DNA of 64,000 nt from Pseudomonadota bacterium (GTDB lineage Bacteria; Desulfobacterota; Desulfobacteria; Desulfobacterales; Desulfatibacillaceae), in assembly GCA_043823985.1 (NCBI GenBank), contig JBDRTO010000088.1:3851-67850 (forward strand), written 5' to 3'. This document shows positions 17,101 to 63,974 of the stretch, one piece after another. The notes beneath the pieces were generated by a model, which made no database searches, was not told where the DNA came from, and was given only the letters and a program-made list of their open reading frames with translations. Numbering within the stretch: the stretch's first letter is position 1; every line of letters begins with the position of its first letter. A program made the translations under genes and the position numbers.

Positions 17101-17218
17101 CCATCTGCTTCTTATAGTCATTGGGATCGAAGAACCAAGTCAGGTAAGCGGCCAATGCGCCCACCAGGAGCAGACAGACCAGAAGAACGGCGGCCAGAAC
17201 TTTCCAAATCGTTTTCAT
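14186..17218 (-). CDS. AsmA-family outer-membrane assembly/lipid-transport-like protein with internal tandem repeats
   Basis: The start at internal ATG 17218 gives 'MKTIWKVLAAVLLVCLLLVGALAAYLTWFFDPNDYK', an AsmA-type N-terminal anchor, plus 'LFPWLGLSVKDVSVSNPPEF'. The C-terminal AsmA_2-like region is 'GTLALGVSDGTVKGVNL'. Confidence 0.85.
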   Translation of the reverse strand: MKTIWKVLAAVLLVCLLLVGALAAYLTWFFDPNDYKKQMETAFAESTGRELTMSGDLELTLFPWLGLSVKDVSVSNPPEFGQEPFARIFSAQARVRLLPLLKRRVEVGKVLVNGMELHLILDALGRSNWEDFGAKGQAVEPAPAPSAAPAEGPGMAVEVSGVEVSNSRVIWEDRAKKERFEVSDVALSLGGIRPGAPMDLDLSFALQSETPRLDSTIRISGKALVQTDSNQYALTGMKADVTANGDFSGNRKVEGQLGGDIRMDGAQHTLAVEGLSFTLAGLTGSGAFTARDLDKDFSFSGSLRVSADSLRNTLENLGVKVDTREPGALGAARLELSFAGSKQAVEIKSIALALDDSKLKGSAGVQFSQPPRYSFQLAADVLNADRYLPPENQGASKIKPGAPAPSGQALPGTLKDLVLDGKLEVGVFTLAGISGSGVFQVKTLDKNLTFSGSLRAAADNLKNSLEKLGIAVDTREPGALGAARLELSFTGSTQAVEIKSIALALDDSKLKGSAGVQFSQPPRYSFQLAADVLNADRYLPPKNQGASEIKPGAPAPPGQALPGTLKDLVLDGKLEVGVFTLAGISGSGVFQVKTLDKNLTFSGSLRAAADNLKNSLEKLGIAVDTREPGTLGAARLELSFTGSTQAVEIKPIALALDDTHLKGSARVLLSHPPRYTFLLAADVLDADRYLPPKDTRAPEHKPAKQPPPSQADLSALKNLFLDGKLEVGAVTLAGMDMKDVLVQVMAKNGVLTIEPARSNLYGGSTLAQAGLDVTGKSPRLQVKDEIKLVQLGPLLSDLAGKGFLTGLGTVRTDLTAEGLDTPDILRTLNGTLALGVSDGTVKGVNLPGLIRESWAALKGVPLDQQAVRDTDFAKLTGTVHFAGGQAKSDDLLLITPLLRVSGRGAADLLQRSLDYTLSAAVLGDLRVTVAGVEKNLKNIQIPIRVTGTLDQPKFGIDPVELARQVAGQEIQEKKGEAVKRLEDAIQKNLPPILQQDAGKKARSLLDTLVP
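15030..16415. repeat. in-frame 453-bp (151-codon) tandem repeat array inside the AsmA-family gene
   Basis: Unit boundaries fall at 15256, 15709 and 16162, an exact period of 453 bp. Copies 15256-15708 and 15709-16161 differ at only about a dozen positions by eye. The flanking copies (about 15030-15255 and 16162-16415) are more diverged. Confidence 0.9.
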
Positions 17219-17475
17219 GCATCCCCCCTTGACTCGGGAATCACAGGTGTTCAAACCAGAACCCTTCACCGCAAAAAGGTAAGGCACGGGTTATGCGTGT
17301 CAAATCCCGGGCTGCCCCGGTATTGCGCGGTTAGCCGGTGTTGATCGTTGCCGTGGTCCGGCCCGATTTGGAAAAGAAAGGAGAATGTCCGGGGTTGCTT
17401 TGTGGATCCGCTCACCTGGAAATCGCTCATGAGGATGAAAAAGCGAGACTGAAGGGGAAACTCCAGGCGCGATTC

Positions 17476-36542: not shown

Positions 36543-39314
36543 CTATCCGTGAAGAATGATGCCCGAGGGCAAAGCCTCCCCGAACATGGCATCCTCATCC
36601 CGCCGGTCCATGGGAATCACTTCGCTCACCATCCGTTTCCATTCCGTGGCAAAGTCCCAGGTTGAGAGCCAGTCCGCAACCCGATTAAGGAACACATCCT
36701 CAAGATCACGTTTCCGGTCCCCGGTACGCCGGGCCATGTGGGCCACGGCCTGGGCCGCCGGCTTCGCGTTCTTCCAGTCGGACTTCATGACGCGGCTCAC
36801 CCATTCCTGGGCTTCCTGGGCAGGGATCACCCGATCCAGGGGGCCGTACAGCAGCCCCCGGGCCCCCAGGCGGGACAGGGACCACAGGAGTTGGGCCGGG
36901 GATTTTTTCGGATTCAGTTCCTTCAGGAGATGGCGTCCGAAAACGGTTTTGTCCTTCACGGAAAGGCGCTCCAGGTTGGCCAGGAGCATCCACATCTCCA
37001 CGGATTCATGGGCCGGGATTTTGGTGGTCACGGATTTTTTCGGCCTAAGCATGGAGGAAAGCTCCTGGAGCACCTGACGTTGATGCCCGGCTGAAAGGCC
37101 ACCAGCAACCCGCCGCCAGAGCACCCACCACTCCATGCGCACCTGGGGGTTTTTACCGAATGCCGGGCCTTTCTGGAACAAGGGCCACAAGGTCTTGATC
37201 CGGTGCTCGTCAATGGCCTCCCCAAACCCCGGCCGAAGACAGAAACCCGTGAGGTTCAGCCACCGGGCTTCGTGATCAGCCGAAAGCCTGCGGCCGTCCG
37301 TTACTTCCAGAAGATCCTCCCCTAACCTCCGGATAAGGCCCAGGGGCCACTTGCCCCGGGGAGTCTCCAGGACGTCGGCCAGGGCATTGGCCAGCCTTTC
37401 CGGGGCTACTACGGCAGAGTCCCCGGCCTTGTACACGCCCCGGATGAGTTCCCGGGCCTTGTGGACCGTCTCCTCCTCGAAAACCTGGTCATCCGCAACG
37501 TCCAGGGCCAGGTCCGCGTCCCGGAGCTGGAAGGAAAGACGCCACTGGTGATCCGTGTTCCTGGACCGGCACCACAGGGCCAGGGTGCCCAATTCCGTGT
37601 AATGGGCCTCCAGGTTCACGGGAATGGCGGTCTGCCCGGCCTTTTTCCCGAACTGAATCACTGTGCGGATGGGGGGCAACAGGGTCAGAGTGTCATCGAT
37701 GTCGATGATGTCGCCGCTCCTGTCCCCGGAACGGAAGGAAGAGGAATATACGGTGAAACTTACGGGCTGGTTGGCCAGGACCGTGAACTCCCGGTCTTCC
37801 AGGGGAATCCGGCTGCCCTCCTCCACCCCGCGTTCCATGAGGCAGATGGCTTTTTCCGGTTTTCCTCCGGCCTCGGGGCCGCCCAGGGCCAGGTAGTAGC
37901 CCCGGGCGCTGCCCGAGCCAACCCGGACGCCCTTGCCAGCCTTCACAAGTCCATAGTAGGCCGCGCCCCGGGAAACAGCGAGGTCCAGATCCGGGTTTTC
38001 CAGGACCCGGGGCTGGGCGTCGGCGTGAAACCAGTGCCGGATGCCCTCCCGGATGCGATTCTGGATGATGCCGGGCTTGAGGGCTCCTCCGTTGAAAAGG
38101 ATGAGGTCCGGGTACGGCACTTCCCGCCCCAGGAACTCCTTCACGTCCGCCGCATGGCGTTCCAGGAACCGGCAGATGTGGCGGTTGATGACCGCGTCCT
38201 GGGCATAGGGCAGACCGAATTCCGTGATCCCCGCCTTCTGGGCCGCAGGGCCGGGGTCCGAGGCCTCCACCAGGGGGAAAAACCCCTCCAGGATGGCGGT
38301 TTCGATCTCCTCCCGGTCGAGGACAGCCGAAAGGGTTCCGGCAATGAGCCGTCCGCCCTCGCCCATGAGGGTCACGGTGTACGAGTCCGCCTGGCCCGAA
38401 AGGATGGTTTCCTTGGCCATGCGGCACTGATGGCACAGGGCTTGCCAGCGGTTGGCGTTCAAGGAAAAAGTCTGGCCCTTCTTCATGCGGGCCTCGGTTT
38501 GCCGGGCCAGGGCCAAGTCGATGTTGTCGCCGCCAAGAATCAGGTGGTCGCCCACGGCGATGCGCTCAAACCGGGGATGCCCGTCCACGTCCCGTAGGGT
38601 GATGAGGGTGAAGTCGCTGGTTCCGCCCCCCACGTCCACAGCCAGAATGAGTTCGCCGGGGGACACATGGCGGTCCCAGTCGTTTTCGTGGAACACGAGC
38701 CAGGAGTAGAAGGCGGCCAGGGGTTCTTCCAGGAGGGTGATCTCCGGGATGCCGGCCACGCGCGCGGCCTCCACAGTGAAGTCCCGGGCCACCTGGTCAA
38801 AGGACGCGGGAACCGTGATGATGACATTCTGGTTTTCCAAAAACAGGTCTTCGTCTTCCCCCTGGAAATGGTTCCACGCAGCCCGCAGGTGGGCGAGATA
38901 GGCAGCCGTAGCCGCCACGGGGGAAAGCTTGTCCACGCCCTGGTCAGCCGCCCACGGCAGGATGGGTGCCGTTCTGTCCACCTGGGAATGACAGAGCCAG
39001 CTCTTGGCCGAGGCCACCAAACGCCCGGGCACCCGGGAACCCTGTTCCCGGGCCAGGATCCCCGCCACCGTGGCCGGCTCCAGGTCCCAGGGAAGAGCCA
39101 GTTCAGCCCGGTTCACATCGTACTTGCCCGGGAGGTACAAAAAGGAGGGGAGCACATTGGACTGGCCCACTTCGCCGCCGCCCACCAATTGGGGGACAGG
39201 CAGGACGTGGATCCGGTTCTTGCCACTATCCTTTTCCAAATCCACCCAGGACAGGGCTGAGTTGGTGGTGCCGAGATCAATCCCGATGAGGAACCGGCGT
39301 TCACGAAGCTCCAA
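36543..39314 (-). CDS. atypical Hsp70-family protein, 923 aa, with about 350-aa non-canonical C-terminal extension
   Basis: 'IGIDLGTTNSALS' (phosphate-1) and 'VDVGGGTSDFTLI' (phosphate-2) are present. The C-terminal third has no DnaK-like lid. Its start overlaps the upstream Hsp70 gene by 14 nt. Confidence 0.85.
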   Translation of the reverse strand: MELRERRFLIGIDLGTTNSALSWVDLEKDSGKNRIHVLPVPQLVGGGEVGQSNVLPSFLYLPGKYDVNRAELALPWDLEPATVAGILAREQGSRVPGRLVASAKSWLCHSQVDRTAPILPWAADQGVDKLSPVAATAAYLAHLRAAWNHFQGEDEDLFLENQNVIITVPASFDQVARDFTVEAARVAGIPEITLLEEPLAAFYSWLVFHENDWDRHVSPGELILAVDVGGGTSDFTLITLRDVDGHPRFERIAVGDHLILGGDNIDLALARQTEARMKKGQTFSLNANRWQALCHQCRMAKETILSGQADSYTVTLMGEGGRLIAGTLSAVLDREEIETAILEGFFPLVEASDPGPAAQKAGITEFGLPYAQDAVINRHICRFLERHAADVKEFLGREVPYPDLILFNGGALKPGIIQNRIREGIRHWFHADAQPRVLENPDLDLAVSRGAAYYGLVKAGKGVRVGSGSARGYYLALGGPEAGGKPEKAICLMERGVEEGSRIPLEDREFTVLANQPVSFTVYSSSFRSGDRSGDIIDIDDTLTLLPPIRTVIQFGKKAGQTAIPVNLEAHYTELGTLALWCRSRNTDHQWRLSFQLRDADLALDVADDQVFEEETVHKARELIRGVYKAGDSAVVAPERLANALADVLETPRGKWPLGLIRRLGEDLLEVTDGRRLSADHEARWLNLTGFCLRPGFGEAIDEHRIKTLWPLFQKGPAFGKNPQVRMEWWVLWRRVAGGLSAGHQRQVLQELSSMLRPKKSVTTKIPAHESVEMWMLLANLERLSVKDKTVFGRHLLKELNPKKSPAQLLWSLSRLGARGLLYGPLDRVIPAQEAQEWVSRVMKSDWKNAKPAAQAVAHMARRTGDRKRDLEDVFLNRVADWLSTWDFATEWKRMVSEVIPMDRRDEDAMFGEALPSGIILHG

Positions 39315-41109
39315 GGTCGTCCCTCTCCCGCACGGAAAATTCCAGCTTCCACTTCTTGTCCGACTTTTCGGACACGCACCAGAGTTCCAGAGTGCCCACC
39401 TCCGTGGCCTGGACTTCCAGGGTCACGGGCATCACCTCGCCCGCCTCACCGTCCAGCATGGTCATCAAAGTGTCCACGGGCTCGATTTCCTTTTCCCAGT
39501 CATCCACCACGTTTCCTGCTTTGTCATCCTTGCGCTGGGTGGAGGCCAGGAGTTCGAACCGGACATCCTCCCCCACCACCAGGCCAAACCGGGCCTCGGA
39601 AAGGGAACTCCCGGTGCCCTCTTCCATGCCGAAAGGGGCGACGCACAGGGCCCGCACCGGCGCGGACATGCCCGGCACGGCAGGCATGGAAGCTTCCACA
39701 CCGATGTAGTACGCCCGGTTCAGCCCGCCCCGGATACGCACGGCAGCCCCCCGCCGGGCCAGTCCGTAATAGGCCGCTCCCGTGGCCACGGAGAGGTCGT
39801 ACTGGGCACCGGAAAGCTCCCGCACACCGCCATCGTCCCACGAGTCCAGCACGGCCTTCACCCGGTCCCGAAAGGCCGGAGCCTTCATCACGCCGCCGTT
39901 GAAAAGAATGGCCGTGGGCACCCCGTTGCCGAATTTCGCAAGAAATGAGGCCAGGTGACAGGTTACCGAGGGGTCGGATTCATAAATCAGACCCAATTCC
40001 CGCATGCCCATGCGATTGCTCTGGACGGGCCGGGCGCCTTTTTCGCAAAACGGCAAAAACCCGTCCGAAAGGGTCTTTTGGATTTCCTCCCGGGTCAATT
40101 CGGTTTTGATGGTGCCCGCGATGAGCCCGGAACCCCGGCCCAGGACCGTGATGGGTGCGGACTCCACATCCTCTCCGGACAAAAGTTTTTCCTTGGCGTT
40201 CCGGCAACTCTGCCACAGGCCGCGCATCTGCCAGGCATCGAGCTTTTTTCCCTGGGACGACAGCTTGGCCGCCACCACATGGGCCAGGGTAAGATCCATG
40301 TTGTCCCCGCCCACCAGGAGGTGTTCGCCCACGGCCACACGCTCCAGGGCCAGGTCGCCCTCCTCCTGGCTCACCTGGATGAGGGAAAAGTCGCTGGTGC
40401 CGCCGCCCACATCGCACACCAGGACCAGATCCCCTACGTCCACCTGCTCCCGCCAATTGTCCCGGGACTGCCAAATCCAGGAGTAGAAGGCCGCCTGGGG
40501 CTCCTCCAGGAGGGTCACCCTTTCCATGCCCGCCATCTGGGCCGCCCGGACCGTGAGTTCCCGGGCCACGGCGTCAAAAGACGCGGGTACGGTGAGGTGG
40601 ATTTCCTGGTTCTCCAGAAGCGCTTCTTCCCCTTGTGCCGCCATCTCGTGGTTCCAGGCGCTCCGTATGTGGGAAAGCACGGCCGCCGAGGCTTCCACGG
40701 GAGAGAGCTTCCCTTGGGGAGGCTCCTCCGCACCCCATGGCAGGGTTTTTTCGTTCCGGTCCACTCGATGGTTGGCCAGCCAGCTCTTGGCCGAGGAGAT
40801 GAGACGGTGGGGAATTTCCGCGCCTCGGTCCCGGGCGAAAGCACCCACGGCCCGGCTGGAATCCGGGTCCCAGGGAAGCGCGAGTCCTCCCTCGGGCACA
40901 TCGTGAGGCCCGGGAAGAAGCACAAAAGAAGGTAGGGTTGCGGACTTGTCCACGGTTCCGGGCGCGATCAATTGAGGAATCTCAAACACCCGGATGGCGG
41001 GATGCTCGCCCTTTTCTGCGGACGATTCGGTCCAGGCAACCACGCTGTTGGTGGTGCCCAGGTCAATGCCGACGACGTACTTGGAATCAGCCAAGGCGGA
41101 TTTCCTCAA
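39301..41109 (-). CDS. atypical Hsp70-family protein, 602 aa
   Basis: 'VGIDLGTTNSVVAW' and 'CDVGGGTSDFSLI' are present. There is no EEVD or DnaK-type C-terminus. Confidence 0.85.
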   Translation of the reverse strand: MRKSALADSKYVVGIDLGTTNSVVAWTESSAEKGEHPAIRVFEIPQLIAPGTVDKSATLPSFVLLPGPHDVPEGGLALPWDPDSSRAVGAFARDRGAEIPHRLISSAKSWLANHRVDRNEKTLPWGAEEPPQGKLSPVEASAAVLSHIRSAWNHEMAAQGEEALLENQEIHLTVPASFDAVARELTVRAAQMAGMERVTLLEEPQAAFYSWIWQSRDNWREQVDVGDLVLVCDVGGGTSDFSLIQVSQEEGDLALERVAVGEHLLVGGDNMDLTLAHVVAAKLSSQGKKLDAWQMRGLWQSCRNAKEKLLSGEDVESAPITVLGRGSGLIAGTIKTELTREEIQKTLSDGFLPFCEKGARPVQSNRMGMRELGLIYESDPSVTCHLASFLAKFGNGVPTAILFNGGVMKAPAFRDRVKAVLDSWDDGGVRELSGAQYDLSVATGAAYYGLARRGAAVRIRGGLNRAYYIGVEASMPAVPGMSAPVRALCVAPFGMEEGTGSSLSEARFGLVVGEDVRFELLASTQRKDDKAGNVVDDWEKEIEPVDTLMTMLDGEAGEVMPVTLEVQATEVGTLELWCVSEKSDKKWKLEFSVRERDDLGAS

Positions 41110-53769: not shown

Positions 53770-54407
53770 GGTGCCCCCAGCCAGGCCAGGGCAAACAGTG
53801 CGAAGTTGCCCGATGCATGGATCATGATGGGCACCAGGAGATTTTTTTCCTTTTCGTACGCCAGGGCGAAGACCACGCCCCCCACCATCTGGGTGAAGGG
53901 GATCCGGGAGGCCCCCATGTGGGGCAACACGAAGAACACGATGGAAACCAGAAGGGCCGCCGGAATTCCCCAGCGCCGGAAATAGCCGTAAACTAGTCCC
54001 CGGAAAAAAAGCTCCTCCGCCAGAGGGGCGATGAAGGTCCCCACGAAAATAAACAGCGCCAATCCCAGGGTGGATTCGGGCAATCGGGAATGGAGCATAC
54101 GAAGCGGCGCAAGCCCCAGGAGGTGCAGGACCAGGATGCCGATCCCGGCCACCAGGGCAAAAAACAGGCACCACAAGGCTCCGCGCTTGAACCCCGGCAG
54201 AAGGTTCACCCGGGCCAAACCAAAGGACGGAGCCCCATTTCCCAGGCACCAGGCCATGCCCATAACCCAGGCCGCCTGGGCCAGCCGGACAGTTCCCAGG
54301 GCGGTCATGTCCACGGCCACCGTGCCCCGGGGAATGAAAAAGGTCATCCCCTCCAGGGCCAGCACGCCGGACAGGCCGGCCCAGAAAATGGCCGGCCTCA
54401 GCGCCAT
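53766..54407 (-). CDS. CPBP-family (CAAX-type) intramembrane glutamic endopeptidase
   Basis: 'APLAEELFFRG', 'FALAY' and 'LLVPIMIHASGNF' motifs, with multiple TM helices. ATG 54407 overlaps the upstream stop by about 10 nt. Confidence 0.8.
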   Translation of the reverse strand: MALRPAIFWAGLSGVLALEGMTFFIPRGTVAVDMTALGTVRLAQAAWVMGMAWCLGNGAPSFGLARVNLLPGFKRGALWCLFFALVAGIGILVLHLLGLAPLRMLHSRLPESTLGLALFIFVGTFIAPLAEELFFRGLVYGYFRRWGIPAALLVSIVFFVLPHMGASRIPFTQMVGGVVFALAYEKEKNLLVPIMIHASGNFALFALAWLGAP

Positions 54408-55906
54408 TCCTGTGTCCAACCCAGGCTTTTCAAGGCCCGGTAGGCATACATCTGGACGTACCAGTCCCCCGAATCCCGAAGTATGCCCAAAAGGACTTCC
54501 CGGGCCCTGGGGTTTCCGCCATGCCCCATGGATTCCATGGCCTTGCAGCGCACATTGCGATGAGGGTCCCGGGCCAGGGCGGTCAAATCATCAAAGGCCC
54601 GGGCACATCGGGCCCCCCGGAGGGCTCGGGCCGTCCAGTAGCGTACCGCCGTGTTTTCATTGGTCAGAAGCGACTCGTAGGTGTCCAAGGAACAGATGTC
54701 CTTGCCCTCTTCCATGGTTTTCTTTATGCTGGCTGTGATGAGGATGGAGGAGTCCGAGGCCAGGAGGTCCGTTGCTTCCATTTCCGGGTGCGCTCCTCCC
54801 AGGGACCGGACCGGGACCAGGGCCAGGAGCCCAATGGCCATACAGACCGTTCCGGGGAGCCACCATCGCCAGGGCCCGCGAAAAAAACCAACGCCCTTTT
54901 CCAGGCCCGCGAAAAGCGTGAGGTATAAAAACAGGGGGAAACCGAAAACCAGGGTGTAATAGGTCAGGGTTCGGACTCCCTCCTGGTTATCGGTTTCTAT
55001 GGAAAACTCTTCCAGGGCATCCTCCAGATGGGTTTTGAATTCCCTGGAGTCTTTTTCCAAAATCTTCCGTTTCCCATGGAAAAGGCCGAGCCCTTGGCCC
55101 GAGGGGCGCAGGAGGAGATCCGTGGGCACCCCTTCCGGCACGGGAAAATAATCCCGCATGGCAAGACCACGGGCCACGCCCCGGGGAAAATCCCTGGGAG
55201 AAAGTTCTTCCTCCCTGACGGTCTTGATGAGCTTCTGGTGCAGCGCCTTAAAGGATTCAGCCGGATAAAGGGTATAGTCGTAATAGAATTCGTTGAACGC
55301 GTTCCCAGCCGGATTGGAAAGGAGGAGGCTGTCCCGCAGATCCAGGAACAGGGTCCGGTCCAGGTGCAGAAGCCACCCCCCTGCCAGGATGACCACCGGG
55401 AGGAAAAAAGCCAGGGCCTCCTTCAGGGTTCTCCGGGCGTCCACTCTTTGGGAAAGGCACCAGGAAACCAGGAAGGCCGCCAGGGGAACCAGGAGCCCCA
55501 GGAGGGTTCCGGGCAGAGTGAATCCACGAGAATTCACGAATACCAGGAGGCTGGCCTCCAAGATCGCGGCCAGGGCCAGGGCCAGGTGAAAACCCAATCC
55601 CATTCTTTTGGCCAGCCAAGCCCAAAGGGAAAAGAGAATCCCCAGGCCGGTTCCCACGGTGAAGGAATAGAACAGCGCTCCCAGTACCGGAGTGGTCAGG
55701 CCATCAAGAAGTGGGAAGACCTTTGGGCCGGGCACGGTCACGTATCCGGCCGCATCCAGAGCCTTCATCCTGGTCAGGAGGGCTTGGTTGGACCACCAGA
55801 TCCATCCCATAGCTACAATTTGACAGGCCGCCATACCCGCCAGGGTTGAAATCATAAGGCCCGTGGCGAATCCGCCTGACTTCTGCTTTTTGTTCCCCTC
55901 CTCCAT
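54398..55906 (-). CDS. polytopic membrane protein with C-terminal HEAT-like repeats
   Basis: About 9 predicted TM helices, then 'VRYWTARALRG...LARDPHRNVRCKAMESMG...LRDSGDWYVQMYAYRALKSLG' (HEAT/PBS-lyase-like). The ORF-track TTG start (55984) lies in the T-tract of the dsr terminator, so ATG 55906 (GAGG upstream) is preferred. Confidence 0.55.
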   Translation of the reverse strand: MEEGNKKQKSGGFATGLMISTLAGMAACQIVAMGWIWWSNQALLTRMKALDAAGYVTVPGPKVFPLLDGLTTPVLGALFYSFTVGTGLGILFSLWAWLAKRMGLGFHLALALAAILEASLLVFVNSRGFTLPGTLLGLLVPLAAFLVSWCLSQRVDARRTLKEALAFFLPVVILAGGWLLHLDRTLFLDLRDSLLLSNPAGNAFNEFYYDYTLYPAESFKALHQKLIKTVREEELSPRDFPRGVARGLAMRDYFPVPEGVPTDLLLRPSGQGLGLFHGKRKILEKDSREFKTHLEDALEEFSIETDNQEGVRTLTYYTLVFGFPLFLYLTLFAGLEKGVGFFRGPWRWWLPGTVCMAIGLLALVPVRSLGGAHPEMEATDLLASDSSILITASIKKTMEEGKDICSLDTYESLLTNENTAVRYWTARALRGARCARAFDDLTALARDPHRNVRCKAMESMGHGGNPRAREVLLGILRDSGDWYVQMYAYRALKSLGWTQEWR

Positions 55907-55981
55907 GCCCTGCCTCGCCGTGATGACCATGCCAAAGGGATAAACCAGCCCTTGCAGAATAGCTCCCTTTTGCCCACGCTG

Positions 55982-56020
55982 CAAACAAAAGGGCCCGGCC
56001 CCCGTGGGGGAGCCGGGCCC
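55982..56020 (-). terminator. rho-independent terminator of the dsrMKJOP operon
   Basis: The minus-strand RNA GGGCCCGGCUCCCCCACGGGGGCCGGGCCC forms an approximately 13-bp GC stem followed by UUUUGUUUG, 24 nt after the dsrP stop. Confidence 0.65.
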
Positions 56021-56044: not shown

Positions 56045-57208
56045 TCAGCTCGCAGCTTCCTTTTTGACCTCCAGAGCGATCTTGAACAGCACCGTCAGGA
56101 TAAAGATGCCCAGGGAATAAATTCCCACGGTGATGGCAAGCTCGTACACGCTGGGATAGTACTCGGTGACGTGGTCCAGCATGTTGGGAATGAATCCTGC
56201 AACCACAAGCCCCATGCCCTTTTCCAGCCATGTGGACAGAACAAGCGCCATGAGGGCGATGATGAGGATCTTCTCGTTGTTGCGGAACCTGGGGGGGATC
56301 AGCAGAATTAGGGAGAAGATCCCCAGGAGTACCGACGCCCACATGACCGGCACCAGGGCGTAGTGCCCCTCCAGACCCGCAAACAGGTAAATAAACGTAT
56401 GTTTGTGGCCCGGAATATTGCTGTAGAAGGCGGTAAAAAGTTCCAGGGACAGGAAGAACAGGTTGGTGATCATGGCGTAGGTGATGATCTTGGCCAATGC
56501 GCGGATGGCCTTCTGCCCCGGGTCGAATCCAGTGAGACGCCTCAGGATGAACACGATGAGCAGAAGAATGGCCGGTCCGGCGCAAAAAGCGGACGCCAGG
56601 AACCGTGGAGCCATAATGGCCGTGAGCCAGAAATGCCGGCCCGCCAGACCTGAGTACAGAAAGGCCGTCACGGTGTGGATGGAAAAGGCCCAGGGAATGG
56701 AGAGATAGATGAGGGGCTTCACCCACTTTGGGGGAGGCATGCTCTTCCTCTCGCTCTGGAGAACCGTCCACCCGACAACGATGTTCAGCAGCATGTAGAC
56801 GTTCAGCACAATCGCATCCCAGAACAGGATGGAGTTGGGCGTGGGATACAGAAAGAGATTGAGCAGCCGGGAGGGCTGGCCCAGGTCCACCAGGACGAAC
56901 ATCATGCAAGTGAAAACCGCAGCCACGGCCATGAATTCGCCCAGTATGGTGATCTTGCCGAACTCCTTGTAGTTGTGGAGATAATACGGCAGGACCAGCA
57001 TGACACCCGAGGCGGCCACGCCCACCAGGTAGGTCAGCTGGGAGATGTAGATGCCCCAGCTGACATCCCGGGACATGCCGGTGACCCCCAGGCCCTGGAA
57101 ATACTGGTACAGGTAGGCTCCGAAGCCTATCGCGATGAAAAACGAAAGGACCGCGAGCCAACCCCAGTATCTTTCACTTCCTTTCAATGCCTTTTCCAGC
57201 ATAGCCAC
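56045..57208 (-). CDS. dsrP: DsrP, NrfD/PsrC-family integral membrane subunit
   Basis: 387 aa with about 10 TM helices and an NrfD-like N-terminus 'YWGWLAVLSFFIAIGFGAYLYQ...GMSRDVSWGIYI'. It is the last gene of the M-K-J-O-P order. Start is GTG 57208 or ATG 57202. Confidence 0.85.
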   Translation of the reverse strand: MAMLEKALKGSERYWGWLAVLSFFIAIGFGAYLYQYFQGLGVTGMSRDVSWGIYISQLTYLVGVAASGVMLVLPYYLHNYKEFGKITILGEFMAVAAVFTCMMFVLVDLGQPSRLLNLFLYPTPNSILFWDAIVLNVYMLLNIVVGWTVLQSERKSMPPPKWVKPLIYLSIPWAFSIHTVTAFLYSGLAGRHFWLTAIMAPRFLASAFCAGPAILLLIVFILRRLTGFDPGQKAIRALAKIITYAMITNLFFLSLELFTAFYSNIPGHKHTFIYLFAGLEGHYALVPVMWASVLLGIFSLILLIPPRFRNNEKILIIALMALVLSTWLEKGMGLVVAGFIPNMLDHVTEYYPSVYELAITVGIYSLGIFILTVLFKIALEVKKEAAS

Positions 57209-57214
57209 CTCACA

Positions 57215-58015
57215 CTATATGATGTAGTAGATCTGGGGCTGTGTCCCCAGCTCGGGCTTGCGCCGAATGGTGAAATGCTTGCGCAGAGCCTTCGAAACCT
57301 CGGACTCGTGGTCATCAAGGTCGCCGAAGATCAGTTCGTTGTTCTTGCAGGCCTCCACGCAGGCGGGCATCTGCCCCTTGGCCAGCCTTTCGGCGCAGAA
57401 GTTGCATTTTTCCACCACGCCCTTGGTACGGCTGGGAAATTCGGGATTGGGAGGCGAGAAATTGCCCTCGGCGTCCTTAAGACTTGCCTGTTGCCTCGGG
57501 TCGAACCAATTGAAGCTCCGGGAGCCGTAGGGGCAGCCCGCCATGCAGAACCGGCAGCCGATGCAACGGTGATAATCCATCATCACGATGCCGTCGGGCC
57601 GCTGGAAAGTGGCCTGGGTCGGGCAGACCCGGACGCAGGGAGGATTCACGCATTGGTTGCAGAGAACCAGGAAAGGCTCCCTGGCGATCTCGGCCGGAAG
57701 GTGCTCGTTCTCCTGGCCGGGAAAGGTGTGCTTGTAGCCTTCTTCCCAAATCCACTTGATCTCGTGGAGATGGTTCTCATAATGGGGGATATTATGGGCC
57801 TTGTTGCAGGCCTCGATGGCGGCTTTCCGGGTTTCTCCCGTGAACTTGCCTACATCCACCGCCATGGCCCACCGCTTTGCCGTGAGGGCATTGTCGAAAG
57901 GCGCGGCACCCTTCGGCTTGACCCCCATGGCCAGGGCTTCGACCGAAGGCCGCACCGTCAGCCCGGCAGCCGTGACCCCCAGGATTTTCAGAAAGCTCCT
58001 CCTGGTGCTATCCAT
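57215..58015 (-). CDS. dsrO: DsrO, periplasmic 4Fe-4S ferredoxin-like subunit
   Basis: Tat signal 'STRRSFLKILGVTAAG' and several CxxCxxC-type clusters ('CIGCRFCMAGCP', 'CNQCVNPPCVRVCP'). TGATG overlap with dsrJ. Confidence 0.85.
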   Translation of the reverse strand: MDSTRRSFLKILGVTAAGLTVRPSVEALAMGVKPKGAAPFDNALTAKRWAMAVDVGKFTGETRKAAIEACNKAHNIPHYENHLHEIKWIWEEGYKHTFPGQENEHLPAEIAREPFLVLCNQCVNPPCVRVCPTQATFQRPDGIVMMDYHRCIGCRFCMAGCPYGSRSFNWFDPRQQASLKDAEGNFSPPNPEFPSRTKGVVEKCNFCAERLAKGQMPACVEACKNNELIFGDLDDHESEVSKALRKHFTIRRKPELGTQPQIYYII

Positions 58016-58416
58016 CACTTCATCTCCTTTGGCTGGAGGTGGCATTCCCAGCAGTACGGACTGACACCTGCGTAGTTGTGACAGGAGTCACAAAACTTTT
58101 CCTTGTTGGAATGACACTCCATGCAGGTGTTGGACAGGCTCATCTCGTAGCGGACGCCTGTAAAAGCGGGATACGCGCGGTTGCTGTTCCGGACCACCGA
58201 AGTTCTCCACTCGTTCAAGAGCTTCATGTGGTTGGCGCGCATGTACTCCGTATTTTCCACGCAAACAGGCTCGCTCATGGCGGCGATGGCTTCGGTCTGG
58301 ATGTTGGGCTCCGGGGGAGGAGTGGCCTTGCCCATGTTGTAATAAAGGGGAAAGGTGAACACCAAAAAGAAGATGACGAGCCCGACGGTGACTTTGCCCA
58401 GATCGTAGATCTTCAT
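58015..58416 (-). CDS. dsrJ: DsrJ, membrane-anchored triheme cytochrome c
   Basis: 133 aa with an N-terminal anchor and three CxxCH motifs (CMECH, CDSCH, CWECH). ATGA overlap with dsrK. Confidence 0.85.
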   Translation of the reverse strand: MKIYDLGKVTVGLVIFFLVFTFPLYYNMGKATPPPEPNIQTEAIAAMSEPVCVENTEYMRANHMKLLNEWRTSVVRNSNRAYPAFTGVRYEMSLSNTCMECHSNKEKFCDSCHNYAGVSPYCWECHLQPKEMK

Positions 58417-60035
58417 CCTTCATCCTCCATTCCGGGAAGGTCCTCGCCACGCAAGTCCGTGGTGCGCTTCTTCTCGCCGTCAAGCACGAGAGCGTTGCCC
58501 ACCAATTCATGCACGCCGGTCACGCCGACTCCCGGTACCCAGTAGTCCATGAGGGGCGGCAGGGCGGCCCGGTCGATGGCGCAAACGCAGGCCAACATGT
58601 TCACGCCGTGTTTCTCGTGGACATGCCGGACGGCGTTGGCCCGGGGCAGGCCCCCGCGGAACCTCAGTTCCAGGTTCTCGCCGGCGTTCAGCCCCGATCC
58701 GCTTCCGCAGCAGAAAGTCTGCTCCCGGATGGTGTTGGGCGGCATTTCGTAGAAGTGGTTGCAGGTCTTATTGATGATGTACCTGGGCTCTTCCAAGAGA
58801 CCCATGCCCCGAGAGGGGTTGCAGGAGTCATGAAAGGTCAGCCGCAAGTGATCATTACGGCTCTTGTCCAGGTTGAGCTTGTTATGTTTGATCAGATCGG
58901 CCGTGAACTCCGTGATGTGCACCATCTTGTTGGACTTGGCGTTTTCGAACTTTGTGCCGGTGATGGGGTTCACGGGTTGTTCCAGGAAGTCGGACGGGCC
59001 GTTCATGGTGCTCATGTACTGGTGGATCACCCGCCACATGTGGCCGCACTCGCCGCCAAGGATCCATTTGACCCCAAGGCGCTTGGCCTCGGCGTACATC
59101 TTGGAGTTCAGGCGCTTCATCATCTCGTTGGACGTGAAGGATCCGAAGTTGCCGCCCTCGGAGGCATAGGTGCTCCAGGTGATGTCCAGGCCCATGCTCT
59201 CCAGGTAGTGGAAGAGGATGAGATACCCCATGGCCGTGTACGTACCCGGATCACCGAACACATCCCCGGAGGGCGTGATGAACAGAATTTCCGCGCCTTT
59301 CCGGTTGAAGTTCGGCTTCACCCGCACGCCCGTGACATCCTCGATCTCGTCCACGAAGAAGTCCAACATGTCCTTGAAGGCGTGGGGCTGGATGCCCAGG
59401 TGATTGCCCGTGCGGTAGCAGTTGGCCACCGGCGTGGCGATCCAGTCGATGTTCAGACCCAGGAGGTTCAAGAGCTCGCGGGCGATCATGGTGATCTCCG
59501 CAGTGTCGATTCCGTAGGGACAGAACACGCTGCACCGGCGGCATTCGGAGCACTGGAAGAAGTAGTACCACCATTCCTTGAGCACCGGCAGGGTGAGTTT
59601 GCGGGCACCCACCATTTTGCCCATGAGTTTGCCCGCCAGGGTATAGTCCTTGCGGTAGACCGAACGAAGGAGTTCGGCCCGGAGAACGGGCATGTTCTTG
59701 GGGTCGCCCGTGCCGATGAAGTAGTGGCACTTGTCCGCACAGGCTCCACACCGGACGCAGGTGTCCATGAAAATTTTCAGGGAACGGAAACGGTCCAGGC
59801 GGTCCCGGAGTCCGTCCACGATGATCTCCACCCAATTTTCAGGGAGGCCCCAGTCTTCCTCTTCCGGGTTCCATTTGTGGGGGTTGGGCATGCCCACGTA
59901 CTCAACGGACTGGGGTTTCGCCGCGTAGCAGTACATCCCCTTCCGGATGACGGTGGGCGTGTCCATCCACCCGGTGGCCGGCGGATTGTGATCAATCCGT
60001 ATCATCTCCTGGGATTTGGGGACTTCATCAGCCAT
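58413..60035 (-). CDS. dsrK: DsrK, HdrD-like CCG-domain iron-sulfur subunit
   Basis: 540 aa with 'CVRCGACADKCH', 'CSECRRCSVFCP' and CCG motifs ('FCCGSGSG'). A strong GGAGAAGGAG SD precedes the start. Confidence 0.9.
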   Translation of the reverse strand: MADEVPKSQEMIRIDHNPPATGWMDTPTVIRKGMYCYAAKPQSVEYVGMPNPHKWNPEEEDWGLPENWVEIIVDGLRDRLDRFRSLKIFMDTCVRCGACADKCHYFIGTGDPKNMPVLRAELLRSVYRKDYTLAGKLMGKMVGARKLTLPVLKEWWYYFFQCSECRRCSVFCPYGIDTAEITMIARELLNLLGLNIDWIATPVANCYRTGNHLGIQPHAFKDMLDFFVDEIEDVTGVRVKPNFNRKGAEILFITPSGDVFGDPGTYTAMGYLILFHYLESMGLDITWSTYASEGGNFGSFTSNEMMKRLNSKMYAEAKRLGVKWILGGECGHMWRVIHQYMSTMNGPSDFLEQPVNPITGTKFENAKSNKMVHITEFTADLIKHNKLNLDKSRNDHLRLTFHDSCNPSRGMGLLEEPRYIINKTCNHFYEMPPNTIREQTFCCGSGSGLNAGENLELRFRGGLPRANAVRHVHEKHGVNMLACVCAIDRAALPPLMDYWVPGVGVTGVHELVGNALVLDGEKKRTTDLRGEDLPGMEDEG

Positions 60036-60037
60036 GG

Positions 60038-61078
60038 TTACTCCTTCTCCGCGCTATCAGCGGCATCGGCGGGCATTTTATCCACGGGGAGCCCGGCTTC
60101 GATCATGCGGTCTCTGAACTCGTCTTCGTATTCCTCGTAGGTATGGAGATGAACCTCGGGGTTCCAAGGGTTCACATGATGAAACTCCCGGCTGTTGCCG
60201 CGCAGGTTCCGGGTGGGGCTCATGAAGATGCCGCCCAGATGCATGAGCTTGCTGAAAGGAAAGTACGCCAGCAGCACGCTCACCAGGAACAGGTGAATGA
60301 AAAAGAAGATGCCAATCCCTTCCGGCACGGACGGATGCAGGCTCGCCAAGCCCAGGGTCAGTTCCCGGATCGCTACGATGTCCACATGGACCACGTAGCG
60401 CATGATCAGGCCCGTTCCCGCGATGGAGAGGATCAGGAACAGGGGAAAGTAATCAGCAGGAAGACTGATGTAGCGCACGTTGGAAACGGCAAGGCGCCTG
60501 AAGAGGAGGTAGCCGGCCGCGCCAAAAAGCACGAACCCGGAAATAATGATCCCCGGAAGGCCGATCTGGAGAAATCCGTCCAGGGCGTCCAGCAGTTGAA
60601 TAGGTGCCGGAATGGGCTCCAGAAAGAACCGCAGGTGCCGTATCACCACGGTGAGAAAGGCATAGTGGAAAGCCAGGGCGGCCACCCACAGCCAGAGTTC
60701 CCACCCGTAAGCGATCCTGGGCCCCTGGGAGTCGAGCTGCATCTTGGTATTCCGGAAAAGGGACCTGAAAGTCAGAATCTCCAGGGCCATGCGGCCCACG
60801 ACATGCCATTTGCTGGAGGGATTCTCCAGCTTATCCGGCTTGATCCAGGGCAGACTCTTCTGCTGGCCGCAGGTTGTTGCAATGGAGAAGGGAACCGGGC
60901 TTTTGGCCCAGGAAAGCACCTTCCAGATGAAACCGAGGATGAACACGGCCAATGCAAGAAGGGGAATCACCACGCCGAACAAGGGGTGTAGGGCGGGTAC
61001 AGCCCCGCCGATGGTGCCGACGACCAGCACGGCTCCCACGGCAATCAGGGATACGATAACCGATGTCAGAAAATTCAT
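60038..61078 (-). CDS. dsrM: DsrM, NarI-like dihaem cytochrome b membrane subunit
   Basis: 346 aa with multiple TM helices and a NarI/HdrE-like arrangement. It is the first gene of the dsrMKJOP order. Confidence 0.85.
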   Translation of the reverse strand: MNFLTSVIVSLIAVGAVLVVGTIGGAVPALHPLFGVVIPLLALAVFILGFIWKVLSWAKSPVPFSIATTCGQQKSLPWIKPDKLENPSSKWHVVGRMALEILTFRSLFRNTKMQLDSQGPRIAYGWELWLWVAALAFHYAFLTVVIRHLRFFLEPIPAPIQLLDALDGFLQIGLPGIIISGFVLFGAAGYLLFRRLAVSNVRYISLPADYFPLFLILSIAGTGLIMRYVVHVDIVAIRELTLGLASLHPSVPEGIGIFFFIHLFLVSVLLAYFPFSKLMHLGGIFMSPTRNLRGNSREFHHVNPWNPEVHLHTYEEYEDEFRDRMIEAGLPVDKMPADAADSAEKE

Positions 61079-61094
61079 TGACGCTTACCTCGCT

Positions 61095-61655
61095 TCAGGT
61101 TTCGGTTTCCTCGCTTGCCCGGTTTTCGGCCTCTTGGCCGGATCCGGAGGCCTCCGGCAACTCACAGACCAAATTCGCCTTGGCCAGGGCGTTGTAAACG
61201 GCATTCTTGACTTCCGCCAGGCGTATCTCGGCAAGTTTGGCCTTGGACTCCGCGTAGAGATCAAACCCTGTCAGGGCCAGCCGGTCCACCCGGGAATCCA
61301 GTTCATACAGGTCCTGGTCCTTGAGCTTGGCCAGTTCCTTTCGGAGCTTTTCCCGGACGATGCCTTTCAGCTCGAAAAGAAAAGCCACCGCACGGGAAGG
61401 GGTAAAATCCTGGACCGCCCGGACCCGCATGAAGTCAGCCAAAAAATCAAGTTTTACTTCATGTTTGTCATGAAAAAGCCCGTCGAACGCTTCTTCCAGT
61501 CCCAGGCTAAGCTTGTGCCCCACCGGATTGGCAAAGGGGTCTTTCTGTTTTTTTAGAAACTGGGTGGCATCTATCGGATAGGTGGCAAGAGTGCGTTCCT
61601 TCCATTCCTTCAGAATGGCCGAACGATTCTCCTTGAGGAGTTCCGGGATATCCAT
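61095..61655 (-). CDS. RsbRD-N-terminal-domain-like protein preceding dsrM
   Basis: The internal ATG 61655 gives 'MDIPELLKENRSAILKEWKERTLATYP...', the kind of small helical protein I recall being conserved upstream of dsrMKJOP in sulfate reducers. The acidic C-terminal tail is Glu/Thr-rich. Confidence 0.6.
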   Translation of the reverse strand: MDIPELLKENRSAILKEWKERTLATYPIDATQFLKKQKDPFANPVGHKLSLGLEEAFDGLFHDKHEVKLDFLADFMRVRAVQDFTPSRAVAFLFELKGIVREKLRKELAKLKDQDLYELDSRVDRLALTGFDLYAESKAKLAEIRLAEVKNAVYNALAKANLVCELPEASGSGQEAENRASEETET

Positions 61656-61798
61656 TTCCACCCGTCCGCCGGAAGCATGGAACCGCACCGAAAACGTCTT
61701 CCCATCCGGGATGGGCGGGCAGCATCCTGTTTCCAAGCACAACTTGCTGATATAAAAGAAAATAGAATCCGTAATTTTCCGGAACTTATTACCGCGCG

Positions 61799-61983: not shown

Positions 61984-62613
61984 CTACGTGCCTTCGGCGC
62001 ATTCCAGGTCCCTGGCCAGAGCCGCCGCGTGGAGGTGCCCCGCGATGTGGACCGGGCTTTTCTGGTAGATGGGATCCCAGGCCGAGGGGTCTGCGGAACA
62101 AAACTGCTGGGAGACAAGACCCATCAGCTCCCCCGCCTCGCCTGCAGGGGTTCCGGCAAGCTTTTCGGCTGCCTCCCAGGTGGCTCCGCAGGGAGCGCCC
62201 CGGAGAACCTGCACCTCGGCCACCTTGCCGTCCTTCAGGAAAACGCGGAACCTCGGTGCCCCGAACCGTTGTCCATACTCGCCCAAGGCAGCCTGCCCGG
62301 GAAGGGCACATCAGGTGGGGGGGCACAGGACACCCGGGACCTCCATCTTCTTTCCCGAGGCTACCATGGGCACCTTGTCTCTCTGGCACAGCCGGGCCAG
62401 GTCCAGGGAAAGGTCCGGATGGCGGAGGAAGTCCAGCACGAGATCGGCACGGATCTCCTGGGGAAAATAGGGGGACGTGTCGTCAAGGACTGGCGGCAGG
62501 GCTTGGTCCAGGCTGTGGACCGTCAAGTCGAAAGAGCCCTGGCCGTATGCTTTGAGCCCCCGGATCTTGGCTCTGGCAGAGCCTCCCTGCTCGAAAACCC
62601 AGATCCTCTGCAT
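61984..62613 (-). CDS. DUF166-like protein with in-frame TGA (candidate selenocysteine codon at 62313-62311)
   Basis: The ORFs 62311-62613 and 61984-62286 are in the same frame and separated only by a TGA. The 'start' of the second ORF is an internal TTG without an SD. The joined product reads '...GVLCPPT-U-CALPGQAALGEYGQRFGAPRFRVFLKDGKVAEVQVLRGAPCGATWEAAEKL...', whose second half matches my recollection of DUF166/COG1810. The ATG overlaps the pepA stop (TGATG). Confidence 0.6.
62281..62313 (-). promoter_or_regulatory. putative bacterial SECIS element following the in-frame UGA
   Basis: RNA: UGA-UGUG-CCCUUCCCGGGCAGGCUGCCUUGGGC. The upper stem GGCA/UGCC caps a GGC apical loop 17-19 nt after the UGA, extended by CCC.GG/UUGGG pairing. 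The shape and spacing resemble the E. coli fdhF SECIS upper stem (GCA-GGUC-UGC). Confidence 0.45.
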
Positions 62614-63974
62614 CAGTAGACCCCCAGGAACCGGGCCAGGAGCCGCACTCCGAACCCGGTGGCGAAACGGCCCACCTCTCCCCGGGGGGATTCCCCGTTG
62701 TAGGCGGTTCCAGCGATGTCCAGGTGGGCCCAGGGCAGGCCTTGGACGAACTCCTGGAGAAACGCCGCTCCGGTGACGGAACTGGCGTGTCCCCGGGGGT
62801 ATTTGGCGATGTTCCGCAGGTCCGCCCGGTCGCTCTTCATGGCCTCAGTGTACTCGGGGTACAGGGGCAGCCGCCAAAGGCGCTCCCGGGTGGATTCCCC
62901 GGCCTCGTAAAGCTCCCCGGCCAGGGTGTCGTCATTGGAGAAAAGTCCGGCCGCCGCAGTTCCCAGGGCCACCAGGATGCCCCCTGTCAGGGTGGCGACA
63001 TCCACCACGCGGGTGGGAGAGAACCGCCGGATGCCCCAAGCCAGGGCGTCAGCCAAAACCAGACGGCCCTCGGCGTCCGTGTTGCCTATCTCCACGCTCT
63101 TGCCCAAGCCGGACCGGTACACATCCCCGGGAAAGTAAGACCGGGCGTCCATGGCGTTGTGGGCCGCGACCACCACACCGGCCACGTTCACGGTCGGCCG
63201 GAGGATGGACAGGGCCCGCATGATGCCCAGGACCGTGGCCGCTCCGGCCATGTCCGTGCGCATGTCCTCGATGCTGCCCGAGGATTTCAGGTTCTGGCCC
63301 CCGGAATCAAAAGTGATGCCCTTGCCCACGAGGAGGATGCGTTCCTTGCGCCTGGGCGCGCCCAGGTATTGGGCCATGGCCAGGCGGGGGGGGTGGACCG
63401 AACCCTTGCCCACGGCGAAGAGGAGCCCCAGGCCCTCGTCGCGGATGCGGTCCTCGTCCAGCACCTCCACGGCCAGGGAGGGATCCTTTTGCCCCAGGGC
63501 CTCGGCCTCGGCGGCGAGCCTCTGGGGCGTCACCTCCTCAGCGTTTTCATTCACCAGATCCCGGGCGTACCAGACGCATTCGCAGAGGGTGGCCGCCTTT
63601 TCCAGTTTTTTCCGGGAGGATTCGGCGCCCACGACCTGGACTGTCTCCATTTGGGGCCCGGGCTCGCCCTTGTATCGTTCAAAGGAGTAGGCCCCCAGCC
63701 AGGCCCCTTCCACGCCAGCCACGTCCCCTCCCCCGCCGGCCTTTCCGGACAGATCCAGGCAGATCCCGGTGCGCTTGAGTTCCAGGGCCTTGCGAACTCC
63801 CGCCGCCGCTGCGCCAAGGATGGCCCGGGGTCCTGAATCGCTGCCCTGGCCCAGGCCGCAAAGGATGAGGGTCTCCCCGTCCTGGTAACGGACGGTGACT
63901 TCGGACCGGTCTCCCTGGAAATCCCGGATGTCTCCGGCTTCCTCCCGGGTCAGGAACCGGATTCGCGTTTCCAT
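62613..63974 (-). CDS. pepA: leucyl aminopeptidase (M17 family)
   Basis: 453 aa. 'NTDAEGRLVLADAL' is the M17 signature, with 'VGKGITFDSGG' and 'MRTDMAGAA' also present. Confidence 0.9.
   Translation of the reverse strand: METRIRFLTREEAGDIRDFQGDRSEVTVRYQDGETLILCGLGQGSDSGPRAILGAAAAGVRKALELKRTGICLDLSGKAGGGGDVAGVEGAWLGAYSFERYKGEPGPQMETVQVVGAESSRKKLEKAATLCECVWYARDLVNENAEEVTPQRLAAEAEALGQKDPSLAVEVLDEDRIRDEGLGLLFAVGKGSVHPPRLAMAQYLGAPRRKERILLVGKGITFDSGGQNLKSSGSIEDMRTDMAGAATVLGIMRALSILRPTVNVAGVVVAAHNAMDARSYFPGDVYRSGLGKSVEIGNTDAEGRLVLADALAWGIRRFSPTRVVDVATLTGGILVALGTAAAGLFSNDDTLAGELYEAGESTRERLWRLPLYPEYTEAMKSDRADLRNIAKYPRGHASSVTGAAFLQEFVQGLPWAHLDIAGTAYNGESPRGEVGRFATGFGVRLLARFLGVY

Follow-up and report, generated by a model that had tools for sequence, protein, structure and literature searches.

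In the stretch of 64,000 nucleotides (nt) from contig JBDRTO010000088.1 of the assembly GCA_043823985.1 that we have analysed here in full ("the window"), the minus strand between positions 62613 and 61984 very probably carries one gene, dfsP, whose in-frame UGA codon (62313-62311) is decoded as selenocysteine (Sec), as judged from the comparison of sequences. A preliminary description of the window had proposed a single translated selenoprotein gene at this site, rather than two genes or a decaying one, and our analysis supports this proposal on three grounds: the match to the family model continues through the stop codon, the codon falls in an alignment column that is occupied by Sec or Cys, and it is followed by a hairpin that is specific to the TGA-bearing forms of the gene. 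The window gene is an ordinary member of DfsP, a selenoprotein family of the DUF166 proteins that has already been catalogued.

In bacteria, SelB with its bound Sec-tRNA(Sec) attaches to a hairpin located downstream of a UGA codon and recodes that codon. Following this established mechanism, the hairpin that begins 10 nt past the UGA of dfsP, with its apical GG, would be bound by SelB carrying Sec-tRNA(Sec), and SelB would deliver Sec to the ribosome when the UGA sits in the A site; the product would be a protein of 209 amino acids (aa), with Sec101 located directly beside Cys102.

Reading frame of dfsP

The minus strand carries an open reading frame (ORF) of 100 codons (62613-62311), which starts at an ATG and stops at the TGA of positions 62313-62311, and a second ORF of 100 codons (62286-61984) in the same frame, which has a nominal TTG start (62286-62284) and a TAG stop (61986-61984); the gap between the TGA and the nominal TTG amounts to eight sense codons. 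Reading through the TGA yields a product of 209 aa, whose sequence around the Sec is V-L-C-P-P-T-U-C-A-L-P. The dfsP gene (61984..62613, minus strand) is accordingly described as a CDS of 209 codons and a TAG stop in which residue 101 is Sec, on the grounds of family matches (PF02593 and NF041372) that span the TGA, while the Sec codon itself (62311..62313, minus strand) is assigned from the Sec/Cys column of the orthologues. The nominal TTG start falls within the 3' arm of the hairpin, and the first in-frame ATG past the TGA occurs at approximately residue 163. At the other end of the gene, the ATG of dfsP overlaps the TGA stop codon of the preceding gene, pepA, in the arrangement TGATG (62611-62615).

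Direct reading of the sequence agrees with the preliminary description in each of these respects: the two 100-codon ORFs of the same frame are separated only by the TGA and join into 209 aa, the downstream half lacks an ATG of its own, the TTG being internal, and the stop codon of pepA overlaps the start of the DUF166 gene. Scans for promoters and terminators around dfsP returned nothing that exceeds chance, and we found no other credible gene in the window that is split by an in-frame TGA, the remaining pairs of ORFs being adjacent genes or off-frame noise.

Family identity

For the profile searches, the two halves were joined, with Cys substituted at the position of the stop codon. The Pfam family DUF166 (PF02593) matches residues 17-203 of the joined protein, i.e. 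across the TGA, with an E-value of 4.9e-39. The joined protein also reaches 293.6 bits with the NCBIfam equivalog NF041372, named "DUF166 family (seleno)protein DfsP", for which the cutoff is 200; the alignment to this equivalog is colinear, with residues 2-203 of the protein placed on positions 1-202 of the 203 positions of the model. A search of protein databases retrieved 508 homologues, several of which are full-length and have already been named DfsP by NCBI, and the window dfsP shares at most 60% identity with any retrieved orthologue.

The family has been reported as a selenoprotein since 2007, under the name "Conserved protein (COG1810)" (Zhang & Gladyshev 2007, NAR 35:4952, PMC1976440), in a study that predicted a selenocysteine insertion sequence (SECIS) for the COG1810 protein in the delta-proteobacterial symbionts of Olavius algarvensis. 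The "DUF166 domain-containing protein" (pfam02593 / NF041372) is listed among the selenoprotein families in two reviews of the selenoproteomes of prokaryotes, from 2022 and 2026 (PMC9312934, PMC13188914), both of which cite the 2007 study. The question raised in the preliminary description, of whether a Sec-containing DUF166 family is already catalogued, is thus answered in the affirmative.

The window copy has been deposited in GenBank, from a metagenome-assembled genome (MAG), as two coding sequences (CDSs), MBU2488251.1 and MBU2488250.1, both of them called "DUF166 domain-containing protein"; the joined sequence, with X at the stop, has no entry in the protein collection that was searched. 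Although the family is known, the two-CDS entry of the window dfsP is a mis-annotation. The public contig with these entries, JAHJUF010000073.1 of the assembly GCA_018829095.1 (59,724 bp), would, as calculated from the coordinates, begin near position 15595 of the window, inside an AsmA-family ORF (14186-17287), and continue for some 11 kb beyond the end of the window, so that the window seems to represent a longer or different assembly of the same organism.

The window copy resembles the rest of the family in matching the equivalog colinearly over its full length and above the cutoff, in the presence of Sec at the Sec/Cys column of the motif P-P-T-[U/C]-C, in its in-register SECIS hairpin with the apical A-G-G, and in the five positions that are invariantly cysteine (or Sec) in the clade, i.e. 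C76, U/C101, C102, C142 and C172. The differences are minor, namely a Gly instead of Arg at position +5 after the UGA, a stem with a bulged U, a GGC loop and an additional, non-conserved cysteine (Cys97); beyond these, the window copy differs from its family in its unusual location between pepA and dsrMKJOP, and in having been deposited as two CDSs instead of one selenoprotein.

Conservation of the Sec position and of the downstream half

The alignment of the window protein with 23 full-length homologues of 50-60% identity (24 sequences) places residue 101 in a column that is Cys in all 23 homologues, within the motif P-P-T-C-C-[AG]-L. The window protein retains all 48 invariant columns of this alignment, 29 of which lie past residue 101; the C-terminal half therefore keeps every invariant residue, including R138-G-A-P-C-G-A, W146, C172, W179-D-P and H189, as had been anticipated from the conserved appearance of its core. 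The downstream half contains no further stops or frameshifts, and its composition is still of the coding type.

At the level of the codon, we have compared 80 orthologous loci from species-representative genomes, including Desulfacinum, Desulfosoma, Desulfoferrobacter, Desulfobulbaceae and Desulfobacterales. The codon of residue 101 could be scored in 74 of the 80 loci: it is TGA in 53, TGC in 12 and TGT in nine, with the TGA forms distributed over several families of Thermodesulfobacteriota. The alignment check that had been suggested for this gene, i.e. whether the UGA column is Cys or UGA in relatives, therefore comes out in favour of Sec, both in the proteins (23 of 23 Cys) and in the loci (53 TGA against 21 TGC or TGT). 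In an exhaustive profile search, at least 16 of the 150 cluster representatives listed end exactly at profile position 109, which is the residue before Sec, and to judge by where they stop, these short proteins look like Sec forms that have been truncated by gene callers. Taken together, the TGA in 53 orthologous loci, the Cys column and the truncated representatives speak strongly against the TGA being due to an error of sequencing or to a nonsense mutation peculiar to this copy.

The conservation extends unevenly over the cysteines of this region. The preliminary description had pointed to a Cys-rich context, C-P-P-T-U-C, of which the segment P-P-T-[U/C]-C is indeed conserved, but the leading cysteine, C97, is Thr in most relatives, and the cysteine that is universal is C102 rather than the residue at the Sec site. 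When members of only 22-30% identity are aligned, the invariant residues are reduced to C102, C142 and C172, together with G118, P120 and G143, while column 101 is Cys solely in the DfsP clade and in approximately one third of the distant DUF166 members. As column 101 varies among the distant members and C102, C142 and C172 are universal, Sec can be regarded as a residue added beside a conserved three-Cys site.

The SECIS hairpin

We number the hairpin from the U of the UGA, which is nt 1. In the window, the hairpin lies within the CDS (62282..62301, minus strand) and is formed by a stem of nt 13-19 with nt 25/26-32, in which U28 is bulged, and by the loop A-G-G-C-U (62294-62290), with its GG at 62293-62292. 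The pairs of the stem are C13-G32, C14-G31, C15-G30, G16-U29, G17-C27, G18-C26 and C19-G25, and the loop is A20-G21-G22-C23-U24. When the window sequence is instead placed in the register of the family, six of the seven pairs are formed, two of them G·U; the register shifted by 1 nt, with the bulged U28, compensates for the mismatch at 19-26. The minimum free energy (MFE) of the hairpin is -14.2 kcal/mol, which equals the family mean, and the shape with the GGC loop is also found in at least six other TGA-bearing orthologues (L004, L020, L027, L041, L049 and L056).

In order to describe the element across the family, 51 distinct TGA-form sequences (gapless alignment) were compared with 21 Cys forms. 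The TGA forms share a stem of nt 13-19 with nt 26-32 and a loop that opens with A20-G21-G22; G21 and G22 are invariant in all 51, whereas GG occurs at nt 21-22 in eight of the 21 Cys forms. The stem covaries: pair 15-30 is C-G in 26, A-U in 20 and G-C in five of the TGA forms and is broken in none, and pair 18-27 occurs as G-C, G-U, A-U and C-G. Across the 51 TGA forms, 88% of the cells are paired in the true register, and a slide by 1-3 columns lowers this share to 53% or less; the complete stem of seven pairs is present in 40 of the 51 TGA forms and in none of the 21 Cys forms. The tripeptide R-Q-V that is encoded by the hairpin (positions +5 to +7) is nearly fixed among the TGA forms and variable among the Cys forms; since it is near-fixed in the TGA forms alone, the constraint acts on the RNA.

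A covariance model that was trained on 50 orthologous elements, and not on the window itself, matches a segment of 48 nt on the minus strand (62266..62313), comprising the UGA, the hairpin and the conserved 3' flank, at 44.2 bits (E ~1.5e-11), a score that partly reflects coding homology. This is the sole strong match on both strands of the window, with the next best reaching 13.4 bits. The covariance folding that had been recommended as a check of the hairpin is thereby passed with a model free of the window sequence, and the seven pairs prove to be specific to the TGA forms.

The preliminary description had compared the hairpin with the SECIS element of Escherichia coli fdhF. We have verified the 46-nt fdhF element, counted from the UGA: of 5426 complete genomes, 5419 contain it within fdhF with 100% identity. 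In both systems, the hairpin is located in the CDS just 3' of the UGA, and the GG(U) through which SelB would make contact forms part of the apical loop, occupying nt 22-24 of the fdhF element and nt 21-23 of that of dfsP; the consensus of the DfsP family contains the same decamer, GCAGGUCUGC; the apical GGUC occupies nt 22-25 in fdhF and nt 21-24 in the DfsP consensus. The likeness to the fdhF geometry thus holds to within 1 nt (GG at nt 21-22 in dfsP and at nt 22-23 in fdhF). On the other hand, the host protein of the fdhF element is unrelated to DfsP, and the spacing in dfsP is shorter by 1 nt. The window copy departs further from fdhF, as its 5' arm is without the bulged U, a bulged U being present in the 3' arm instead, and as its loop is GGC rather than GGUC.

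Alternative explanations

Several of our results weigh against the decoding of this UGA as Sec. We found no selA, selB, selD or tRNA-Sec gene in the window, a result that is uninformative either way because most of the genome lies outside these 64 kb. A scan of the whole window with Rfam at gathering thresholds gave no match; the bacterial SECIS models of Rfam do not cover the dfsP element. When the region after the UGA is folded as a single sequence, its stability does not exceed that of shuffled controls (z = +0.55), and the support for the hairpin comes from the comparison of orthologues, because the hairpin by itself does not exceed chance in a sequence of 61% GC. Lastly, the window copy deviates from the consensus: residue +5, which is nearly always Arg in the family, is Gly, positions 19 and 26 do not pair in the family register, and the loop reads GGC where the consensus has GGU; on the whole, its hairpin is a mild variant of the family element. 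As regards the machinery for Sec, a search of the window for tRNAs returned no tRNA genes of any kind, and a candidate for SelD, the AIRS/AIRS_C protein at 50204-51244, was rejected, being identified as ThiL (314 bits), located beside ThiD.

The machinery that is missing from the window and the somewhat off-consensus hairpin (G at +5, the bulge and the GGC loop) are also what would be expected if the UGA and the hairpin were genuine, but the organism inserted no Sec, either because it has lost the trait, with the gene now on course to decay, or because a near-cognate tRNA supplies Cys or Trp. We consider this to be quite improbable: the family model still gives the element 44 bits, its MFE matches the family mean, the GGC variant of the loop is present in other TGA forms, and the absence of sel genes from a window that excludes most of the genome carries no information. 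A pseudogene, in which a nonsense mutation of TGC or TGT to TGA has killed a DUF166 gene of the Cys type and left the downstream half untranslated, is highly improbable. It is true that one nucleotide change separates the TGA from the TGC or TGT of 21 orthologues and that GenBank lists two fragments, but the TGA recurs at the identical codon in 53 other genomes from several families of Thermodesulfobacteriota, always accompanied by a covarying hairpin, which is missing from the Cys forms, and the downstream half has kept all of its invariant residues and its coding-type composition, free of extra stops and frameshifts.

The two fragments could otherwise be taken at face value, as two independent small genes that carry half a DUF166 domain each, as in the GenBank entries MBU2488251.1 and MBU2488250.1; automatic pipelines do call both halves as CDSs, and each half matches PF02593. 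This is extremely unlikely, as the C-terminal "gene" would have to start without an ATG, at the TTG in the 3' arm of the hairpin, and would thereby lose eight conserved residues, including C102, which is invariant in the superfamily; moreover, full-length homologues in a single chain are the rule, and the family hidden Markov model aligns colinearly through the stop. That the TGA is an error of sequencing or assembly has a next to negligible chance of being correct: the source is a MAG, but identical N- and C-terminal fragments occur on three contigs from several sources, and an error would neither create a matching SECIS nor reproduce the TGA state of 53 other genomes. A single dfsP gene with a Sec codon at residue 101 is thus the explanation that we retain.

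Genomic neighbourhood

Upstream of dfsP, on the same strand, lies a pepA-like leucyl aminopeptidase gene of the M17 family (62613..63974, minus strand; Pfam Peptidase_M17, E = 1.1e-109), whose stop codon overlaps the ATG of dfsP. Downstream lies the gene of a protein of 186 aa with an RsbRD_N domain (61095..61655, minus strand; Pfam RsbRD_N, E = 2.4e-18), which is the first gene of a dsr-associated unit; its start at 61655 has been taken from the public gene call, and the longest ORF begins at 61742. It is followed by dsrMKJOP (56045..61078, minus strand), whose products all score above the cutoffs of the NCBIfam equivalogs (DsrM 526, DsrK 738, DsrJ 172, DsrO 308 and DsrP 482 bits). The identities that had been given to these neighbours, i.e. 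PepA, the RsbRD_N protein and DsrM, DsrK, DsrJ, DsrO and DsrP, are therefore correct.

The functional tie between dfsP and dsrMKJOP that was implied in the preliminary description does not find support among the orthologues. Genes of dsrMKJOP are found near dfsP in three of the 80 loci (L054, L076 and L080), and also in L083, all of which carry Cys forms and have the divergent orientation; pepA adjoins dfsP in one of the 80. Synteny thus speaks against both a functional link of dfsP with dsrMKJOP and a linkage with pepA, and the location of dfsP beside these genes is in all likelihood incidental or particular to the lineage.

The functional context in which dfsP is found most often is a cluster for NAD-type formate dehydrogenase (FDH), composed of NuoE-like, NuoF-like and FdhA proteins, to which it is linked in approximately 20 of the 80 loci. 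The dfsP gene closes the NuoE-like, NuoF-like, FdhA cluster in many genomes of Desulfobulbaceae and of the Desulfopila type (e.g. L084:2758-5445; also L031, L047 and L060). The FdhA beside dfsP is itself called as two ORFs (348 and 542 aa), with the stop located at '...NNVDHCARY*', which is the Sec codon of FdhA; it follows from this split that those lineages decode Sec.

In 27 of the 80 loci (e.g. L084:5590-5976 and L009:4564-4950), dfsP is preceded on its own strand, at a distance of some 50 nt, by a gene for a conserved protein of approximately 128 aa that has no match in Pfam. This protein is the most frequent immediate neighbour of dfsP and possibly a partner protein; the window does not contain it. 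A convergent rubrerythrin gene is found near dfsP in 20 of the 80 loci, and a gene for an FeS+DUF3786 protein in 15.

The RsbRD_N protein is located directly before dsrM both in the window and in Desulfosarcina-type genomes (L054, L076, L080 and L083), with 36-37% identity, and sometimes has a NifU_N gene beside it; RsbRD_N-dsrMKJOP seems to be a conserved unit. In the window, dsrP is followed downstream by the gene of a HEAT-repeat protein (54398-55984, minus strand) and by that of an Rce1-like CPBP protease (the latter from public gene calls), ahead of that of a class A penicillin-binding protein.

Two further regions of the window deserve mention. An ORF of 843 aa on the plus strand (20671-23202) has a coding-type GC content at third codon positions and no match in Pfam or NCBIfam at E <= 1e-5. 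On the minus strand, two large adjacent genes (36543-41109; 923 and 602 aa) both encode N-termini with the Hsp70-type motif 'GIDLGTTNS', as noted by eye from the N-termini only, and this pair may constitute a paired, non-canonical Hsp70-like system.

Structure and possible function of DfsP

A search of the sequences of the Protein Data Bank (PDB) with the family profile returned chance matches to DARPins only. We have considered the AlphaFold2 model of a Cys homologue that is 58% identical to the window protein; this model, which is of the homologue and not of the window protein, has a predicted local distance difference test (pLDDT) score of 94.4 and a predicted template-modelling (pTM) score of 0.89. 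A Foldseek comparison of the model with the PDB gave nothing at E <= 1e-3, and a weak flavodoxin-like similarity over one half, with template-modelling (TM) scores of at most 0.34.

From their invariance across the DUF166 superfamily, we infer that C102, C142 and C172 may form a metal or an iron-sulfur site, beside which Sec/Cys101 would act as a redox-active or a ligand-exchanging residue. Mammalian thioredoxin reductase provides a known example of a vicinal Cys-Sec centre, in its C-terminal Gly-Cys-Sec-Gly. By analogy, the Sec of DfsP adjoins a Cys, which could allow for a selenenylsulfide or for shared metal ligation; unlike in thioredoxin reductase, the order is reversed (Sec-Cys), the pair is internal rather than C-terminal, and the fold is unrelated. 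By its conservation pattern, C102 of DfsP looks more like a conserved ligand of the three-Cys site than like a redox partner of U101.

Genetic data exist for an archaeal member of PF02593, the family to which DfsP also belongs: Methanococcus maripaludis loses the ability to fix CO2 when its DUF166 gene MMP_RS05055 is knocked out, and this gene shows cofitness with carbon monoxide dehydrogenase/acetyl-CoA synthase (CODH/ACS) and with CooC2 at r = 0.94-0.99 (bioRxiv 10.1101/2024.03.05.583561). Our search of the literature found no genetic data on DUF166 members other than MMP_RS05055. The archaeal protein is presumably a distant relative, and distant DUF166 members have only C102, C142 and C172 in common with DfsP. 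On account of the linkage to FDH genes and of the genetics of M. maripaludis, it can be speculated that DfsP serves CO2-reducing metalloenzymes, e.g. FDH or CODH/ACS, as an accessory factor that helps to mature or reactivate them or supplies them with electrons; we regard this as a tentative possibility, which is more likely wrong than right. Weighing against it, no genes for FDH or CODH/ACS are found beside the dfsP of the window, and the fold has no solved relative.

A more elaborate proposal, that DfsP is a Se-dependent maturation or reactivation factor for FDH and CODH/ACS which operates through a three-Cys metal or Fe-S site, and which has a second role in the electron-transfer complex of sulfite reduction, is rather unlikely. 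The second role, if true, would explain the location of dfsP upstream of RsbRD_N-dsrMKJOP in the window and its proximity to these genes in Desulfosarcina-type genomes.

Implications

As one more member of a family that has been known since 2007, the window copy raises no new question. Its two GenBank entries, MBU2488251.1 and MBU2488250.1, should be merged into a single CDS of a selenoprotein, in which a transl_except marks the UGA; corrections of this kind matter when the selenoproteomes of uncultured sulfate reducers are counted. If the reading of DfsP as a Se-dependent accessory factor were true, it would be a discovery about the DfsP family and not about the window; likewise, it is the family, rather than the locus in the window, that presents a reasonable target for biochemistry, with its unsolved fold, its three-Cys site next to Sec, and its recurrent linkage to FDH.

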